DNA of 64,000 nucleotides from assembly GCA_023898465.1 (NCBI GenBank), contig CP060223.1, forward strand, positions 832,001-896,000, in the 5' to 3' direction. This DNA comes from Candidatus Nomurabacteria bacterium (lineage in GTDB: Bacteria; Patescibacteriota; Patescibacteriia; HK-STAS-PATE-3). Made by a program: the position numbers and the translations under genes. Of this stretch, positions 2,113 to 63,063 are shown piece by piece. The notes under the pieces were generated by a model. That model saw nothing but the letters and a program-made list of their open reading frames with translations, did not search any database and was not told the DNA's origin. The number at the start of each line of letters is the position of its first letter. The first letter of the stretch is position 1.

Positions 2113-3254
2113 CATCGTGCAGAAAGCTGCGCAAAAAGAAATGGAATAAGCAAAGTGAAACAAATAGTCGAAGCTATAATCACCGAATAAAGTCCAACAT
2201 CAATCAGGCCGTTATCAAAGAGTAGCTTCACAATAATAATGCTGGTGCTGAAACGAACAGATAGTCCTATACCGAGTAAAATAGCCCCCCGTCCACCAAA
2301 CTCCTTCTTGCCCATAACAATACTCGCCAGGAGCTTAGCCAGACCAGCCACTACTATAAGCGCAGCAATTTGCCAGAGATGTCCACCAACGTATTGCAAA
2401 TCTAGAGATGCGCCAACCCACACAAAAAAGATTGGAGCAAAGAAGCCATAGGCGATGGTGCGCAAATCAGTTTCAATAAACTTCAAGCGTGCAGTTGGGA
2501 TAAAATTACGTAGGGCCACACCGGCCAGCAAAGCACCTAGCGCAGTCGCCTCGGCAAAAGAACCAACTGCCAAGAAAAGGAAAAGACCAAACATGGTCAT
2601 GAGAAAAAGGGTTTCCACCTGAGAAAACGCGAACCGCTGGCGCTCTGCTCGCAAGTAAGAAAAAAGTGCGGTCAATCCAAATAAACCTAGGAGACCAAGG
2701 AAAACAACAGCAACGTGGACGGAGATATTTACCGCACTCGTACCAAGTAATAAAGATACGAAAATGAGACTGATAATTTCAACGATGTCATCTAGGGTTC
2801 CTATACCAATAATCGCCTGCCCGACTGGCGTACGAATAAGCTTAGAGGCATCAAGTATTGGCACTAGGATTGCCTCGCCGACTGTGGCAAAAGACAGACC
2901 AACCAAGATAGCGATATCCCATGAAACCTGAAAAAGGGTATGCACTAATATGCTGCCCAATAATGCCTCAAAGAGAATAATGACAAAAGCCGAGCTTGCT
3001 AAAAACGCTCCTTTCTTCCGCATGTCTTGTACATCCACCTCAAAACCAATGATGAAGAGTAGGAGGTACATACCTAATTGAGCCAGGAAGGAAAAAGTTT
3101 CTCCGTTGGTAATAGTGGAAAAAGGATTTCCTATGGCGAGTATTGTTCCAAGTATCAGCGCGGCAAAGACCCACGGCACTTTCACTCGCTCAATCAACCT
3201 CCCTACCAGGAGAGTGAACAAAAAGACGACGCTTAAAAAGAGATAAATACTCAT
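2088..3254 (-). CDS. Cation:proton antiporter (CPA2 / Kef-NapA-like Na+(K+)/H+ exchanger family) membrane protein
   Basis: 388 aa with about 12 hydrophobic segments and a typical CPA layout (FIIGFEVD, GLSVRFS-like loops). Its last ~25 nt overlap the ATPase start. Confidence 0.65.
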   Translation of the reverse strand: MSIYLFLSVVFLFTLLVGRLIERVKVPWVFAALILGTILAIGNPFSTITNGETFSFLAQLGMYLLLFIIGFEVDVQDMRKKGAFLASSAFVIILFEALLGSILVHTLFQVSWDIAILVGLSFATVGEAILVPILDASKLIRTPVGQAIIGIGTLDDIVEIISLIFVSLLLGTSAVNISVHVAVVFLGLLGLFGLTALFSYLRAERQRFAFSQVETLFLMTMFGLFLFLAVGSFAEATALGALLAGVALRNFIPTARLKFIETDLRTIAYGFFAPIFFVWVGASLDLQYVGGHLWQIAALIVVAGLAKLLASIVMGKKEFGGRGAILLGIGLSVRFSTSIIIVKLLFDNGLIDVGLYSVIIASTICFTLLIPFLFAQLSARWRNQLKTK

Positions 3255-22284: not shown

Positions 22285-22640
22285 TGCAGAGCAGTTGTTC
22301 TTTCGCAAACTCAAAAGAGTCGAACGCTTGGGCCCGTCAGGGTTAAGCGTGAGACTCAGAGGGACATCCTTTCGAAAGCCGAAGTGGACTGGTGAATACC
22401 AGAACACGTAGGCAGGAGAAAGAGATGGCCCGAGAAGATGAGGCGTTTGACTCGTTTACCGAATTGAGGACGCTTTCCGCCCACGGGCGGATAAGTGAAC
22501 GAGAAGCCAAGTAGCGTAACCGGCATCAGTAGTGTTTTTGTAGAATTACCGGACAACGTACTTGCGACCCAAAAGGAATATGGGTCACCAAACGCCTCCC
22601 AACAGATGGGAGTTCTTTTCATCTAAGGGAGGAAAAAGAG
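22285..22640 (+). promoter_or_regulatory. ~350-nt 5-prime leader with several hairpins and an SD-preceded 29-codon uORF (22415-22504); candidate cis-regulatory RNA
   Basis: Hairpins gtttgc...gcaaac and ccgcccacgggcgg. uORF MAREDEAFDSFTELRTLSAHGRISEREAK with aggag 7 nt upstream. No match to riboswitch consensus sequences I can recall. Confidence 0.3.
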
Positions 22641-57389: not shown

Positions 57390-57580
57390 GACTTATACAG
57401 TAGCACTGCGGTAGGCAAAGCTCAATGCTTTGCCTACATAATATACAAAACGTAGCCCAGGAATTCATCCTGGGCGAAATGTGCAAAAAGAAAAGCCGCC
57501 TAGCACAAAAATATCAGGTATTACCCTTAGATCATGATAGCTCCAGTGCCGTCTTTGCATATTGCGAACACGTTGCTTGT

Positions 57581-61408: not shown

Positions 61409-61963
61409 CTAGGCTCGTTTCCGCAGTATCCTTGCCTGATATATTGTGGCGATTGTCTGGATACTCCCCATGACAATGAAGAGTGTTTGGAAAGAATATT
61501 GAGTTACAACAACGCCTCCCAAAATAATTGCTGCGCCGGTGACAATCAAGGCTGTACCCTCGGAAATACCCCACTCATAAGTATCGTGTTTACGATCTTC
61601 ATATTTGGCGTACAGCGCATCCCAAGTTGGTGTCGCAAGTGCCGCGGCAACTCCTAAGCCTGCTTGCACAATGAGGAGATGGAGAGGTGAACTCACAAAG
61701 AGATACCCGAAGGTGAATAGCGCATTCAGCGCGTAGCCAAGCATCATCATTTTTTCCTTTGAGTAGCCTTGGTCAATTATTTTACCAAAGAGGATATGAA
61801 GCACGCCGCCGACAATAAGATAGGTTGCCCAGGCCCAAGTGATCTCTAAAACGTCGCCGCCTACTTGCTCAGCAAAAACAGCGAAGAGTGGCCCAAGCAT
61901 GCCTTCGCCTAAATACCAGATGTTTGAACCGTAGAGTAAAATAGCTCGTTGTTCTTTCCCCAT
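61409..61963 (-). CDS. Small polytopic membrane protein (about 6 TM, MFS-half-like)
   Basis: 184 aa, hydrophobic throughout. No partner half nearby. Confidence 0.35.
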   Translation of the reverse strand: MGKEQRAILLYGSNIWYLGEGMLGPLFAVFAEQVGGDVLEITWAWATYLIVGGVLHILFGKIIDQGYSKEKMMMLGYALNALFTFGYLFVSSPLHLLIVQAGLGVAAALATPTWDALYAKYEDRKHDTYEWGISEGTALIVTGAAIILGGVVVTQYSFQTLFIVMGSIQTIATIYQARILRKRA

Positions 61964-62044
61964 GCCGATAGTATACGGGTTTCTTAGCTATGCGACTAGC
62001 GAATAAGCCCTTTGAAGGACTCAAGTAATCTTGGCGGATATTAT

Positions 62045-62134
62045 AAAACTAAAACTGGCGGTGGGAGAGGGATTTGAACCCCCGATACCCTTTCGGGTAT
62101 ACCGCATTTCGAGTGCGGCCCATTCGACCACTCT
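62045..62134 (-). tRNA. tRNA-Ser (anticodon CGA), type II with long variable arm, CCA encoded
   Basis: Reverse complement GGTGGGATGCCAGAGTGGTCGAATGGGCCGCACTCGAAATGCGGTATACCCGAAAGGGTATCGGGGGTTCAAATCCCTCTCCCACCGCCA. Anticodon stem CCGCA/TGCGG with loop CTCGAAA. Variable-arm hairpin ATACCC-GAAA-GGGTAT. Confidence 0.8.
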
Positions 62135-62153
62135 GGCATCCCACCGTGAATAG

Positions 62154-62405
62154 TTAGCGAATTGTATTTTGGAGTAAAAATTTCAGACGCTCACGTCCCT
62201 TTCCCGTCTTCAAAAATCTTTCCTCAAGTACTGCATCATTTTTGTTTGAGAACACCTCATAGTAAACGAGTGACCAATCTTGCGACCGGGATGTATAGCG
62301 CGATCTGCCGGACTTATGTTCGCTTACCCTCTTTTTTAAATCACTTGTACTGCCGATATACTTCTTTTTTAGATGAATACTATACAATATGTATACATAA
62401 TACAT
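62154..62405 (-). CDS. GIY-YIG nuclease-domain protein (83 aa)
   Basis: SD aaggag 4 nt before ATG. MYYVYILYSIHLKKKYIGSTSDLKKRVSEHKSG matches the GIY-x10-YIG...R...H..G motif. Confidence 0.7.
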   Translation of the reverse strand: MYYVYILYSIHLKKKYIGSTSDLKKRVSEHKSGRSRYTSRSQDWSLVYYEVFSNKNDAVLEERFLKTGKGRERLKFLLQNTIR

Positions 62406-62523
62406 ATTTCTCCTTGTATCGATCACCACCTATCCCGCCCGAGGCGGGTCCGCCTTGGGCGGACGACCACTCTGGCACCTCTCCAAAACGCCGCCTGGAG
62501 TGTAGCGAGATACGCCGACTTAA

Positions 62524-63063
62524 TCAAGCACGATACACCCACAAACTACTATGACCTCGCGGGCGAGGATTTCGTATTTCTTCCGAAGCCTGCCAATCTG
62601 GGAAACGAAATCCATAAGAATAGACTGACGCTCCCTTCTTCAACTGTTTCCGAAGTAGGGTTTCGGTATCTGCCATAACCGCATCAAGTAGGAAACAAAA
62701 AATCAAATCAGCATCATGCAGGTCAGCAGTAAAATAACTTACGTGACGGATTTCTACACCAGTACCGCGCGACCTCCAACGAGCCAAGAGGTAGGGCCAC
62801 CAGGCAATCTCATACCCAATCGCTCGAATGCTTGGATGCGCTTTCTTCAAAGCACGGAGCACTCGGGCATCACCGCAACCAAGATCATACACCACTGCAT
62901 CTTCGATTAAATCTACATGCTTTGCCATCCACTCCACTGCCCAGCGTGAGGTGGGTACATAGGGCACCTTATTTCGAAGAACGCTCCATAGCGCATTCAA
63001 AGCAAAGGCTAAAGCCACCAAGGCTGCTACCAGGATGAGAAGGAGTATACTAATAAGAAGCAT
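62524..63063 (-). CDS. Class I SAM-dependent methyltransferase with N-terminal TM helix
   Basis: VVYDLGCGDARVL (motif I, GxGxG-like) and an acidic post-I residue pattern. 179 aa. Confidence 0.6.
   Translation of the reverse strand: MLLISILLLILVAALVALAFALNALWSVLRNKVPYVPTSRWAVEWMAKHVDLIEDAVVYDLGCGDARVLRALKKAHPSIRAIGYEIAWWPYLLARWRSRGTGVEIRHVSYFTADLHDADLIFCFLLDAVMADTETLLRKQLKKGASVYSYGFRFPDWQASEEIRNPRPRGHSSLWVYRA

Follow-up and report, generated by a model that had tools for sequence, protein, structure and literature searches.

An orphaned tRNA-Ser end beside a twin-hairpin repeat and a small GIY-YIG nuclease gene: probable footprint of tRNA gene displacement in Patescibacteria

Integrative elements that target tRNA genes encode tyrosine or serine integrases, are kilobases long and have att sites made by duplication of the tRNA's 3' part. 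The conserved tRNA is their landing site, and the carried copy of the displaced part keeps the tRNA functional. Nuclease genes are also found at tRNA genes, as with the free-standing GIY-YIG Seg proteins of T4, among which SegB is encoded in a tRNA gene cluster (PMC2330249). The Seg proteins are larger than 200 aa, carry DNA-binding domains and are believed to spread by cleaving alleles that have no copy of their gene, with the repair copying over the gene and its flanking markers. In Patescibacteria, tRNA genes contain introns at anticodon-loop positions, some of which encode HNH, LAGLIDADG or PD-(D/E)XK homing enzymes; the paper on these introns mentions neither GIY-YIG proteins nor tRNA-Ser, hairpins or palindromes, and another paper merely lists GIY-YIG proteins among horizontally transferred genes of the phylum.

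Short palindromic repeats are known from several genomes. Rickettsia palindromic elements (RPEs) are found in frame in unrelated genes and are tolerated as an extra peptide (PMC10969869). They measure about 100-150 bp, are restricted to Rickettsia and have no known dedicated enzyme. REP/REPIN sequences are numerous short palindromes, often arranged as inverted doublets, together with one RAYT gene that is flanked by the repeat and encodes an HUH Y1 transposase; they are extragenic and unconnected with tRNA fragments. Double-hairpin elements of Allomyces mitochondria were reportedly described by Paquin, Laforest and Lang in 2000, and a mobile endonuclease ORF is said (Paquin et al., 1994) to have brought a foreign atp6 end into A. 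macrogynus, with the old end remaining as a stump. That system concerns a mitochondrial protein gene and a full-size endonuclease. The Allomyces elements are GC-rich, two-hairpin mobile repeats in an AT-rich genome (PMC7218506).

The locus studied here lies in a 64-kb stretch of Candidatus Nomurabacteria DNA, called the window below. Along the minus strand, an orphan piece of tRNA is followed by a 30-bp twin-hairpin repeat (termed H), a GIY-YIG nuclease gene and an intact tRNA-Ser(CGA), which is the working copy (Table 1). The elements named in the initial annotation, i.e., the tRNA-Ser(CGA), the GIY-YIG gene, the tRNA-like repeat, the twin hairpins and the Shine-Dalgarno sequence, are all present on this strand, with coordinates that we corrected; the listed open reading frame is opened by a GTG at 62429, and the real start is the ATG given in the table. 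The stop codon of the nuclease gene is 8 nt from the start of the intact tRNA, the insert at the locus is about 330 bp, and no integrase is found among the neighbours. Since an independent assembly (Logan SRR12358676) has the same arrangement, it is no assembly artefact. Literature searches with exact H strings, with GIY-YIG plus tRNA or Patescibacteria, with CPR palindromes and with UPF0213/YhbQ found no earlier description of the layout or of H.

Table 1 Features of the tRNA-Ser(CGA) locus in the window, in minus-strand order
Feature	Position	Strand	Remarks
Candidate promoter of former tRNA gene	62499..62527	minus	TTGATT (62527-62522), 17-nt spacer, TACACT (62504-62499)
Orphan tRNA-like stretch GGAGAGGTGCCAGAGTGGTCG	62484-62464	minus	nt 1-21 of tRNA-Ser: acceptor strand, D stem, D loop
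H, 30-bp twin-hairpin, dyad-symmetric repeat TCCGCCcaaGGCGGA + CCCGCCtcgGGCGGG	62434..62463	no strand	follows tRNA position 21
Hairpin 1 TCCGCCcaaGGCGGA	62463-62449		minus-strand reading
Hairpin 2 CCCGCCtcgGGCGGG	62448-62434		minus-strand reading
ATAGG, possible short D-loop resumption of old tRNA after H (B')	62429..62433	minus	uncertain
Shine-Dalgarno AAGGAG	62415-62410	minus	4 nt 5' of ATG; read from sequence
GIY-YIG nuclease gene, 83 aa	62405-62154	minus	ATG 62405 (MYYVYIL...), stop 62156-62154
tRNA-Ser(CGA), intact	62145-62056	minus	acceptor GGTGGGA/TCCCACC; ARAGORN; Rfam RF00005 56.1 bits, full length
TCCGCCA, possible last 3' remnant of old tRNA (...TCTCTCCGCCA)	62032..62038	minus	sequence reading

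The orphan stretch had been taken for a repeat of the adjacent tRNA. The resemblance is genuine, with 17 of 21 positions matching the neighbouring tRNA-Ser(CGA), including an exact 14-mer (TGCCAGAGTGGTCG) that occurs in the 64 kb only in these two places; exact 14-mers are expected by chance about 5e-4 times in the window, so that the similarity is well above chance. The four mismatches all fall within the acceptor-stem part (GGAGAGG in the stump versus GGTGGGA in the intact gene), and GGAGAGG does not pair with the downstream 3' strand TCCCACC (2 mismatches). The stretch is not a copy of this neighbour; it is the orphaned 5' end of an earlier tRNA-Ser(CGA) at the locus, older than the adjacent intact tRNA and of another sequence lineage. 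The view that it is not a foldable tRNA holds: ARAGORN called no second tRNA at the stump, with introns allowed and with H present or deleted, and an Rfam search of the stump and hairpin region at E <= 10 returned no tRNA or other family. We rejected a tRNA gene made up of the stretch and the hairpins, as no cloverleaf with four arms was called, and likewise an intron-containing or split tRNA, as the acceptor is unpaired, group I and group II intron models of Rfam have no match at the locus and a complete tRNA is adjacent. The tRNA introns of Patescibacteria share the phylum, the class of host gene and the use of anticodon-loop positions with the present loci. In contrast, no ribozyme is detected at the locus of the window, a complete tRNA lies next door, and H is inserted at D-loop and T-loop positions as well.

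Other traces of the old gene are less distinct. The ATAGG after H bears weak similarity to AATGGG of the intact tRNA, and the TCCGCCA, 18 nt downstream of the intact tRNA, could be due to chance, because it is just 7 nt long. The candidate promoter overlaps the stop codon of a 179-aa gene upstream and now lies 5' of the stump. It has 8/12 matches, which is under the scan threshold, and a TTGATT hexamer is found at a similar distance 5' of the same stump in a relative (L247, see below); its assignment to the old tRNA is tentative.

Integration classically takes place at tRNA genes and leaves part of the tRNA duplicated, which might point to an att repeat of a conventional integrase-type island. 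Such an island is nevertheless contradicted by the lack of an integrase, by the size of the insert (about 330 bp here and about 0.1-0.4 kb among the loci described below) and by the duplication, here and usually elsewhere, of the 5' rather than the 3' end of the tRNA. Chance similarity is opposed by the expected number of 14-mers, and an assembly chimera by the independent assembly and by the dozens of MAGs that show such a locus. We give almost no credence to an origin of the fragment by any of these three routes.

Comparing the syntenic tRNA-Ser(CGA) locus of relatives with and without the GIY-YIG gene revealed stumps of the same old tRNA beside different intact tRNA-Ser(CGA) genes. In L247 the same 20-nt orphan is found at the syntenic position with a single hairpin, a different intact tRNA and no GIY-YIG gene. 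L249, which also lacks the nuclease gene, has 3' orphans that include the acceptor TCTCTCC, the partner of GGAGAGG. In L252 the GIY-YIG gene is present and yet another intact tRNA is found; its GIY-YIG protein is 44% identical to that of the window, versus 59% for the neighbouring gene. The acceptors of the intact tRNAs are GGTGGGA in the window, GGAGGCG in L247 and L249, and GGAGGGG in L252. The nuclease gene is therefore polymorphic, by presence and absence, at a defined site in a conserved gene, as homing genes are, and stumps of the same old tRNA beside differing intact tRNAs indicate repeated invasion and tRNA replacement. The suggestion that the region records an insertion or recombination event at the tRNA, perhaps that of a GIY-YIG-carrying element, thereby receives strong comparative support. 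In our main reading, to which we assign a probability of roughly 0.7, the stump is the leftover of an older tRNA-Ser that was cut by H and displaced by a GIY-YIG cassette with a replacement tRNA.

The layout recurs across Patescibacteria. A same-strand tRNA directly downstream (start -20 to +130 nt from the ORF end) is found in 71 of 81 homologous GIY-YIG loci, mostly tRNA-Ser (GGA 22, GCT 19, TGA 12, CGA 9) and otherwise Asp (3), Thr (3), Tyr (2) or Cys (1). The remaining ten loci comprise six that are cut off by a contig break and four with a tandem or mirror form. GIY-YIG/tRNA loci form the ends of many contigs in the set, perhaps because assemblies broke there. A copy of the 5' end of the locus's own tRNA (its first 12 nt matched at 10/12 or better) lies upstream in 52 of the 71 loci, versus 0.7% in shuffles. 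Upstream of the nuclease gene, a perfect twin hairpin is found within 120 nt in 60/81 loci, and H or a degenerate GC hairpin within about 120 nt in 78/81. The recurrent order is thus an orphan, H, a few tRNA bases, the GIY-YIG gene and an intact tRNA, at eight tRNA isoacceptor genes, with stumps of 8-57 nt and with tRNA type and H position varying between loci. The tRNA sequence clearly resumes after H in 41 loci other than that of the window, with a modal run of 6 nt, and the orphan and the post-H bases represent local sequence at every locus. No conserved motif was seen by eye at the start of the leader that follows the resumed bases, and the sequence 5' of the orphan showed no homology to that 5' of the intact tRNA, except in tandem arrays.

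Several variants of this order were observed. Mirror and double-ended forms (L024, L009, L014, L015, L039, L043) have, in the mirror case, a 3' orphan downstream, and in L024 and L009 H comes after the ORF. Clear 3' stumps are found in L015, L039, L043, L014 and L249; in L015 the acceptor GGAAGCG of the 5' orphan pairs with CGCTTCC of the 3' orphan, and the intact tRNA between them has GGAAGGG. Tandem arrays (L057, L049, L056, L005, L011, L021) suggest re-invasion, which they fit without proving it, and partial GIY-YIG copies also occur. Forms without the nuclease gene also exist (L054, L077, L238, L231, L232, L237). The closest pair of cassettes, L022 and L025, is 88% identical and also shares the upstream gene (90% identical), so that vertical descent fits too and the pair cannot define a mobile unit.

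Some of these features would suit a resident GIY-YIG gene, a non-mobile housekeeping partner, for example a repair or processing nuclease co-transcribed with the tRNA, that is unrelated to the stump and hairpins. H would then have independently struck one copy of a small tandem tRNA duplication, and the dead copy would have eroded. The ORF runs in the direction of the tRNA at every locus and in many cases overlaps it, its stop codon in the Ser(GGA) loci being the TAG inside the tRNA; orphan, H and intact tRNA occur without the nuclease gene in L054, L077 and L238; a full-length tRNA copy struck by H lies beside an intact copy in L218; and the L022/L025 cassettes are compatible with vertical descent. 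A resident partner does not, however, account for the occurrence of the gene at eight isoacceptor genes with differing H positions, for its presence and absence at one syntenic locus, where its identity (44%) is below that of the neighbouring gene (59%), or for tandem and partial copies. The nearest GIY-YIG relatives are, moreover, often at other tRNAs, and a hairpin at 78/81 loci is too frequent for an unrelated event. We consider this explanation unlikely, while still deserving some weight.

The twin hairpins noted initially before the Shine-Dalgarno sequence are indeed present, but they are not local to this leader. Metagenome contigs contain more than 120 copies of H, and 107 of 121 are away from any tRNA or GIY-YIG gene; the 64-kb window has a single copy. 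H is a dispersed 30-bp repeat, here inserted into the stump after D-loop position 21. Both twin stems covary strongly (99.8% of cells paired; 93 double-sided changes versus 23.6 in shuffles, with 0/500 shuffles as high), and a single long hairpin, for which there is no covariation, was rejected. The preferred site is TTN/NAA (the slash marks the junction), with T at -2 in 81% and A at +2 in 82% of copies, and tRNA-borne copies show the same flank trend. No target-site duplication was detected at the H junctions beyond the shuffled control (116 unique copies), and no flanking palindrome above chance. Hairpin 2 is close to the reverse complement of hairpin 1, so that H has the terminal inverted repeats of a MITE; it lacks the target-site duplication of that class. 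In phages (IMG/VR), a loose pattern gave 44 contigs, nearly all with ordinary long terminator-like hairpins; twin-type H was found only in L089, L116 and L120, none with a tRNA or GIY-YIG gene. Given the poor specificity of this pattern, a stricter one was used on the metagenomes.

H also enters protein genes. Open frames (open for at least 120 nt on each side) contain 60 of the 107 copies, and 52 of these 60 are in a single frame reading SA.GGSA.GG. The in-frame peptide SAQGGSASGG is found in DnaK, DnaJ and RtcA, and in RtcA it is a clean 10-codon presence/absence difference, present in 3 of 11 close homologues; the insertions in RtcA and in tRNAs are exact. In being palindromic and in frame in protein genes, H resembles the RPEs. 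It differs from them in its length of 30 bp, its two independent 6-bp hairpins, its occurrence in Patescibacteria and its tight linkage to GIY-YIG genes at tRNA loci, and it has no match to an RPE family in Rfam or literature sequence searches. With the REP/REPIN-RAYT system it shares what looks like an autonomous/non-autonomous relation, the repeat being directly upstream of the GIY-YIG gene in 60/81 loci, whereas the linked enzyme is of the GIY-YIG type and more than half of the H copies (60/107) are in open frames.

These properties bear on whether the stump and twin hairpins form a functional RNA leader, i.e., a tRNA mimic or a processing or stability element (such as an entry site for RNase P or RNase III, or a hairpin protecting the 5' end) acting on the nuclease mRNA or on tRNA maturation. 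Strong covariation of the stems, the position of H 6-45 nt 5' of the start codon in most GIY-YIG loci and the probable transcription of a stump just downstream of the old tRNA promoter are all in keeping with such a leader. A palindromic DNA site, though, predicts stem covariation equally well, and the stump region folds no better than shuffles (z = -1.26), with no tRNA or Rfam match. More than 100 H copies are far from tRNA and GIY-YIG genes and inside ORFs, and the mirror forms L024 and L009 place H after the ORF. Since fragment length, tRNA type and hairpin position vary, the loci do not fit one conserved RNA structure. The regulatory tRNA mimic raised in the initial annotation is not supported, and we regard an RNA leader in general as improbable.

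It is believed that Patescibacteria rely on taking up DNA; the uptake sequences of other bacteria can form inverted pairs and can lie inside genes in preferred frames. H could then accumulate by biased DNA uptake and recombination, and the stumps would be scars of transformation with foreign tRNA loci; the differing intact tRNAs at one locus among relatives fit frequent allele replacement. H is, on the other hand, a clean 30-bp insertion with intact flanks at a preferred TTN/NAA site, and no gradual mutation towards the motif is seen. A single H in 64 kb is far too sparse for an uptake signal, which is therefore unlikely in this genome, and we judge this origin of H and the stumps to be very improbable.

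The nuclease gene encodes a GIY-YIG domain, which matches Pfam PF01541 at residues 9-75 (59.7 bits versus a cut-off of 22.6, E = 3.5e-16) and has 502 homologues, the named ones from Patescibacteria. The window protein contains all the family-invariant residues, Y5, Y16, G18, R26, H30, E61, E62, K66 and R73; the invariance of Y5, Y16, G18, R26, H30 and E61/E62 was established across 26 family members, and catalytic roles may be assigned to these residues by analogy with I-TevI and UvrC. Among solved structures, the UPF0213 proteins 1zg2 and 1ywl come closest to the window protein, followed by SLX1 (E = 2.4e-9, 6.7e-6 and about 1e-3), and all have the single-domain GIY-YIG core in common. SLX1 cleaves branched and cruciform-like DNA, a preference that would agree with a repeat forming hairpins; it differs in that it requires the partner SLX4 and has an extra domain. 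We found no link in the literature between UPF0213 and tRNA genes or dispersed palindromes. The catalytic domain fills the 83 aa, and the protein has no additional domain of the kind with which homing enzymes read a long DNA target. This sets the protein, whose activity is predicted, apart from the larger Seg proteins of T4, with which it shares a gene lodged at or among tRNA genes outside any intron; the T4 case also has neither an orphan tRNA segment nor a palindromic repeat. The nearest neighbour of a GIY-YIG protein is at the same tRNA in 31 of 76 cases, versus 15 expected. The proteins thus track tRNA type only partly, indicating both fidelity and switching.

For the displacement of an older tRNA-Ser by a cassette, we propose the following sequence of events. 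An SLX1-like, catalytic-domain-only nuclease would break DNA at or beside TTN/NAA-type sites, for which tRNA loops would be natural hot spots (T loop GTTC/GAAT, Ser anticodon loop CTTG/GAAA, D loop GGTYG/AA). If a single-copy tRNA gene were broken or received an H insertion, the cell would survive only if an intact copy were restored, so that the visible loci would be those repaired from, or invaded by, a cassette. Besides the nuclease gene, the cassette would bring either the part of the tRNA that is missing or a complete new tRNA, and conserved tRNA sequence would provide the homology arms, much as in homing. Still behind the native promoter, the old 5' end would head a single transcript that continues through H and the nuclease mRNA into the tRNA, which RNase P would free. 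The Allomyces case has no sequence relationship to this locus and follows the same logic, in which an invading endonuclease ORF supplies the displaced gene end, as the orphan, the nuclease and the restored tRNA suggest here.

In this cassette displacement, we infer a role of the nuclease in moving H and the cassette, and several observations sit uneasily with simple homing. In contrast to characterised GIY-YIG homing enzymes, a catalytic domain of 83 aa has no evident way to read a long target. The sequence around the H position is unbroken in the intact tRNA beside the gene, so that the putative target persists, carriers would not be immune and classical homing would predict continued self-cleavage. 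Most H copies (107/121) are not beside a GIY-YIG gene, the narrow run of about 6 nt after H is not accounted for by simple homing, and in this window both the continuation after H and the 3' remnant are weak.

A more far-reaching proposal, which we advance tentatively and think rather doubtful, is that the small GIY-YIG protein serves a new class of mobile DNA as its dedicated enzyme and spreads H, and that this DNA is addictive through tRNA replacement. The protein would recognise H as DNA, perhaps as an extruded structure, and would cut at a fixed short distance from it, at which the resumption of about 6 nt of tRNA may hint. H would thereby have spread through genomes, also in frame into protein genes, while the master copy would lodge in essential single-copy tRNA genes and supply the replacement tRNA. 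Where the replacement differs from the stump, loss of the cassette would kill the tRNA; the smallest known bacterial genomes would then harbour an element that is addictive because it has replaced an essential gene.

If these proposals are correct, they would give a role, at least in Patescibacteria, to a large uncharacterised family of GIY-YIG proteins that consist of the catalytic domain only (UPF0213-like), and would provide a compact candidate pair of nuclease and DNA site that is directly testable in vitro. A 30-bp palindromic repeat would be remodelling DnaK, DnaJ and RtcA in genomes that are usually called streamlined. The tRNA genes of these bacteria would be repeatedly broken and replaced, which would affect tRNA phylogeny, gene counts and the annotation of pseudo-tRNAs.

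The locus lies on the minus strand of a contig from a MAG annotated as Candidatus Nomurabacteria, and its arrangement is identical in an independent Logan assembly. It comprises a 21-nt stump resembling tRNA-Ser, a 30-bp repeat of two 15-nt hairpins (H; the only copy in the 64-kb window), a gene for a protein that is a GIY-YIG domain alone, with nothing added (Pfam E = 3.5e-16), and a full-length tRNA-Ser(CGA) (Rfam 56.1 bits). Across the 64 kb there are exactly two occurrences of the 14-mer TGCCAGAGTGGTCG, one in the tRNA and the other in the stump, and stump and tRNA are identical at 17 of 21 nt. About 5e-4 exact 14-mer matches would be expected by chance in the window, so the repeat of the tRNA 5' part reported beside the GIY-YIG gene in the initial annotation is present and far above chance similarity. 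All four mismatches fall within the acceptor strand, which reads GGAGAGG in the stump vs GGTGGGA in the tRNA, and the 3' strand of the downstream tRNA, TCCCACC, finds its pairing partner in the 5' end of that tRNA and not in the stump. Neither ARAGORN nor Rfam calls a second tRNA at the window locus, also when introns are allowed and the hairpins are removed, which agrees with the earlier reading that the region is no foldable tRNA; the same result, together with a leader whose folding is not unusually strong (z = -1.26), leaves the regulatory tRNA mimic proposed as an alternative unsupported.

Features of the window locus (positions 1-64,000 of the window) and of comparison loci (L-numbers) from other genomes and metagenomes
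Feature	Location	Strand	Description
Upstream gene	63063-62524	minus	methyltransferase-like, 179 aa, directly upstream of the locus
Promoter-like pair	62527-62499	minus	weak, TTGATT-17-TACACT; sequence reading
Stump	62484-62464	minus	GGAGAGGTGCCAGAGTGGTCG; sequence reading
Hairpin 1	62463-62449	minus	TCCGCCcaaGGCGGA; sequence reading
Hairpin 2	62448-62434	minus	CCCGCCtcgGGCGGG; sequence reading
AAGGAG	62415-62410	minus	sequence reading
GIY-YIG ORF	62405-62154	minus	ATG start, 83 aa, MYYVYIL...
tRNA-Ser(CGA)	62145-62056	minus	8 nt past the ORF stop
H within tRNA copy	L060		GGAAGCATGGCC-H-GAGTGGTT
H within tRNA copy	L021 (Thr)		...GGTTTT-H-GTAAACC
H within tRNA copy	L025		...CCTTG-H-GAAAGGT
H within tRNA copy	L067 (Cys)		GGCACCGTGGCC-H-GAGTGGTTA
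Mirror form, H in T loop	L024		AGTTC-H-GAATCTCACCCCCACCGCCA
Syntenic locus	L247		neighbour identity 58%; stump GGAGAGGTGCCAGAGTGGTC, one hairpin, 33 nt, intact tRNA-Ser(CGA) GGAGGCG..., no GIY-YIG
Syntenic locus	L249		neighbour identity 59%; GGAGGCG tRNA, then two 3' stumps
Syntenic locus	L252		neighbour identity 59%; GIY-YIG gene overlapping intact tRNA beginning GGAGGGG
H in DnaK C-terminal tail	L131 761; L221 848		two different positions, each empty in the other organism
H in DnaJ G/F region	L132 1130
H in RtcA	L126 9576; L155 3736

Besides H, the only GC-rich hairpins in the window whose stems span 6 bp or more are an unrelated one at 57455-57475 and a single one, TCCGCCcacgGGCGGA, at 22476-22491, which resembles one half of H with a 4-nt loop and sits within an 88-aa ORF (22356-22622, minus strand). 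Next downstream of the tRNA is a gene (61409-61963, minus strand) for only 184 aa, which match the first half of MFS_1 (profile positions 7-166 of 347); it could be a transporter of half size, or a truncated one, bordering this rearranged locus.

The layout of the window locus is a recurrent one. With a profile of the window protein's relatives we collected 80 loci from one-per-species genomes, 81 with the window; where titles are informative they are Patescibacteria, and some carry other automatic labels. A same-strand tRNA starts between -20 and +130 nt from the ORF end in 71 of the 81, being tRNA-Ser (GGA 22, GCT 19, TGA 12, CGA 9) or Asp (3), Thr (3), Tyr (2) or Cys (1); in six of the other 10 the contig breaks off within 150 nt, and four are tandem or mirror forms. 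The first 12 nt of the tRNA are repeated (at least 10/12) within 170 nt upstream of the ORF at 52 of these 71 loci, as compared with 0.7% of shuffled upstream regions, and a perfect adjacent GC hairpin pair lies at most 120 nt upstream of the ORF in 60/81, with at least one hairpin in 78/81. Alignments reveal the common anatomy: the tRNA from nt 1 to a position x, the 30-nt H, a few more tRNA bases, a leader and the ORF. In 41 clean cases x is 12-15 (24 loci), 20-22 (5), 34-36 (9), 57 (1) or 8 (2), and the tRNA run resumed after H has a mode of 6 nt (5-8 nt in 28/41); stump and post-H bases are local sequence in every case. Such a regular run of about 6 nt may point to cutting at a constant distance from H.

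At tRNA-Ser(GGA) loci such as L006, L008, L010, L018, L019 and L026 (positions ~2235-2265) the GIY-YIG frame enters the tRNA by 15 nt and stops at the TAG of GCATAG, tRNA positions 13-15, so that the last residues of the protein are encoded by the tRNA 5' end. Many contigs end within a few dozen bases of the GIY-YIG gene or at the stump (L003, L005, L013, L017, L029, L042, L058, L001, L246), where duplicated pieces of tRNA, along with tRNA-Ser genes that are nearly identical, may be breaking short-read assemblies.

When metagenome contigs were scanned without bias for the most frequent H subtype, at least 120 contigs matched and, among the matches listed, 107 of 121 copies are without a nearby tRNA or GIY-YIG gene. 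The flanks of the 116 unique copies among these matches show T at -2 (81%) and -3 (51%) on the left and A at +2 (82%) and +3 (54%) on the right, with neither target duplication nor flanking palindrome beyond chance. The tRNA-borne copies follow the same trend, and tRNA loops fit this TTN/NAA preference (T loop GTTC/GAAT; Ser anticodon loop CTTG/GAAA and CTTG/AAAA; D loop GGTTG/AAA), which makes tRNA genes, and tRNA-Ser especially, hot spots for H. Among the matches listed, 60/107 copies fall within reading frames that stay open for 120 nt or more on either side, 52 of the 60 in the single frame reading SA.GGSA.GG, and H is translated as SAQGGSASGG-like decapeptides within DnaK, DnaJ and the RNA 3'-phosphate cyclase RtcA. 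Of 11 close RtcA homologues, 3 have the decapeptide and 8 (~80% identity) lack it, with the flanks CLIAEF/ENTVIG intact. Dispersal, site preference, in-frame copies and the RtcA polymorphism thus identify H as a genuine insertion-type presence/absence repeat.

Viral contigs, scanned with a looser pattern, yielded essentially ordinary terminator hairpins only. Two GC-rich IMG/VR contigs (L116 3346, L120 8294) carry H-type twin hairpins with no tRNA or GIY-YIG gene nearby; these may have arisen by chance, given the GC content, or represent an independent occurrence. At L139 971, H occupies the loop of a hairpin already present there (CTCCCTCCCTT-H-AAGCTAAGGGAGGG), as in tRNA loops; a palindrome-extension statistic over all H copies gave no excess over chance.

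The hairpins themselves are under constraint. The 50 distinct H sequences from GIY-YIG loci align without gaps, with almost no variation in the loop flanks or in the inner three pairs of either stem (GCC-CAA-GGC and GCC-TYG-GGC); the outer three pairs vary by compensatory change, and 99.8% of cells are paired. Double-sided changes number 93 vs 23.6 in shuffles, none of 500 shuffles equalling this value, and slid registers collapse; since the selection pattern fixed the inner pairs only, the covariation of the outer pairs is unbiased. A model in which hairpins 1 and 2 pair with each other into a single long stem scores no higher than shuffles. Hairpin 2 is nearly the reverse complement of hairpin 1, so H reads alike on both strands.

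Variant forms are found as well. In the mirror-image form an intact tRNA is followed by the ORF and then by a 3' tRNA stump whose T loop contains H, and in one such locus (L009) the duplicated tract also takes in 45 nt of downstream flank. Double-ended forms have a stump on either side (L015, L039, L043, and L014 with tRNA-Thr and tRNA-Tyr inside). At L015 the 5' stump acceptor GGAAGCG exactly complements CGCTTCC of the 3' stump, and the intact tRNA between them has GGAAGGG, so that a resident tRNA has been cut in two and its work is done by another copy. Several mismatches separate the stump from the adjoining intact tRNA at roughly a dozen loci, that of the window included. Tandem arrays (L057, with two near-identical units, L049, L056, L005, L011 and L021) are what re-invasion of a restored tRNA would give. 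Other loci lack the GIY-YIG ORF (L054, L077, L238 for Glu, L231 for Thr, L232 for Ser, L237 for Leu), and at L218 H interrupts a full-length tRNA-Ser(GCT) copy adjoining an intact one. ARAGORN also calls tRNA-Ser with the anticodon ACT, unusual for bacteria, in tRNA-Ser clusters beside these cassettes (L071 1808-1895, L232 7518-7605), which could be duplicates in decay or copies that have been altered.

Syntenic loci were found through homologues of the upstream 179-aa gene and have CofD and MJ0043_C-domain neighbours in common. The L247 stump is the same as that of the window, and the first 3' stump of L249 ends in ...GTGGGTTCAAATCCCACTCTCTCCGCC, its acceptor strand pairing with GGAGAGG. The GIY-YIG protein of L252 is only 44% identical to that of the window, which has 65-68% identical relatives in other lineages. 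Together these loci indicate that an older tRNA-Ser(CGA), with acceptor GGAGAGG/TCTCTCC, was broken in several lineages, that the working tRNA differs by genome (GGTGGGA in the window), and that the nuclease gene comes and goes. At this locus the tRNA has been replaced, and the window stump is the front end of the older gene; the 7-nt TCCGCCA at 62038-62032, downstream of the window tRNA, may be a faint last trace of its 3' end. The comparison across loci thus bears out, and considerably extends, the initial suggestion of an insertion or recombination footprint at the tRNA.

L249 also contains another palindrome family (GTCCCGCAC ... GTGCGGGAC; 2690-2780, 2900-3000) flanking its tRNA stumps, with a half palindrome GTGCGGG(G/A)(T)C before each 3' stump, so more than one hairpin-repeat family may share the role of H. 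Two ORFs at L252 5112-6540, ~0.8 kb downstream of the GIY-YIG/tRNA-Ser locus, give weak or faint matches to IS200/IS605-type Y1 transposases.

This structural and evolutionary account of the locus is well supported; the enzymology is inferred. The GIY-YIG protein has intact catalytic residues, and its nearest solved relatives are UPF0213 and SLX1. The nuclease would break DNA at TTN/NAA-type sites or beside H, and a break in a single-copy tRNA gene would be survivable only if repair restored an intact tRNA. The cassette would then spread by homology-directed repair, with conserved tRNA sequence as arms, and the old promoter would give one transcript from which RNase P could free the tRNA. Nearest-neighbour GIY-YIG proteins sit at the same tRNA type in 31/76 cases vs 15 expected, a partial correlation that fits faithful spread as well as target switching. 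A logic of end replacement is reportedly described for the Allomyces atp6 mobile ORF.

The GIY-YIG/tRNA system behaves as a free-standing homing endonuclease cassette does, with T4 SegB, in the tRNA cluster (PMC2330249), as the closest example; however, the window nuclease has no DNA-binding domain and the target is left undestroyed. By inserting in frame, H resembles the Rickettsia palindromic elements (PMC10969869), but it differs from them in size and sequence. It resembles REP/REPIN repeats in having a linked enzyme gene, whereas the GIY-YIG enzyme is non-HUH, in contrast to the REP/RAYT system, and H copies are intragenic. Its behaviour also parallels that of the mobile double-hairpin elements known from Allomyces mitochondria (cited in PMC7218506). 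Unlike MITEs, H has no target duplication; unlike integrative islands, the locus has no integrase and the wrong tRNA end is duplicated; and unlike Patescibacteria tRNA introns, it has no ribozyme (PMC13011429). Since the defining features fail, the system belongs to none of these. A literature search that included exact H strings found no description of the arrangement, and the pattern appears strong, broad and undescribed. It combines known kinds, a homing-type nuclease cassette and a dispersed palindromic repeat, and is directly testable.
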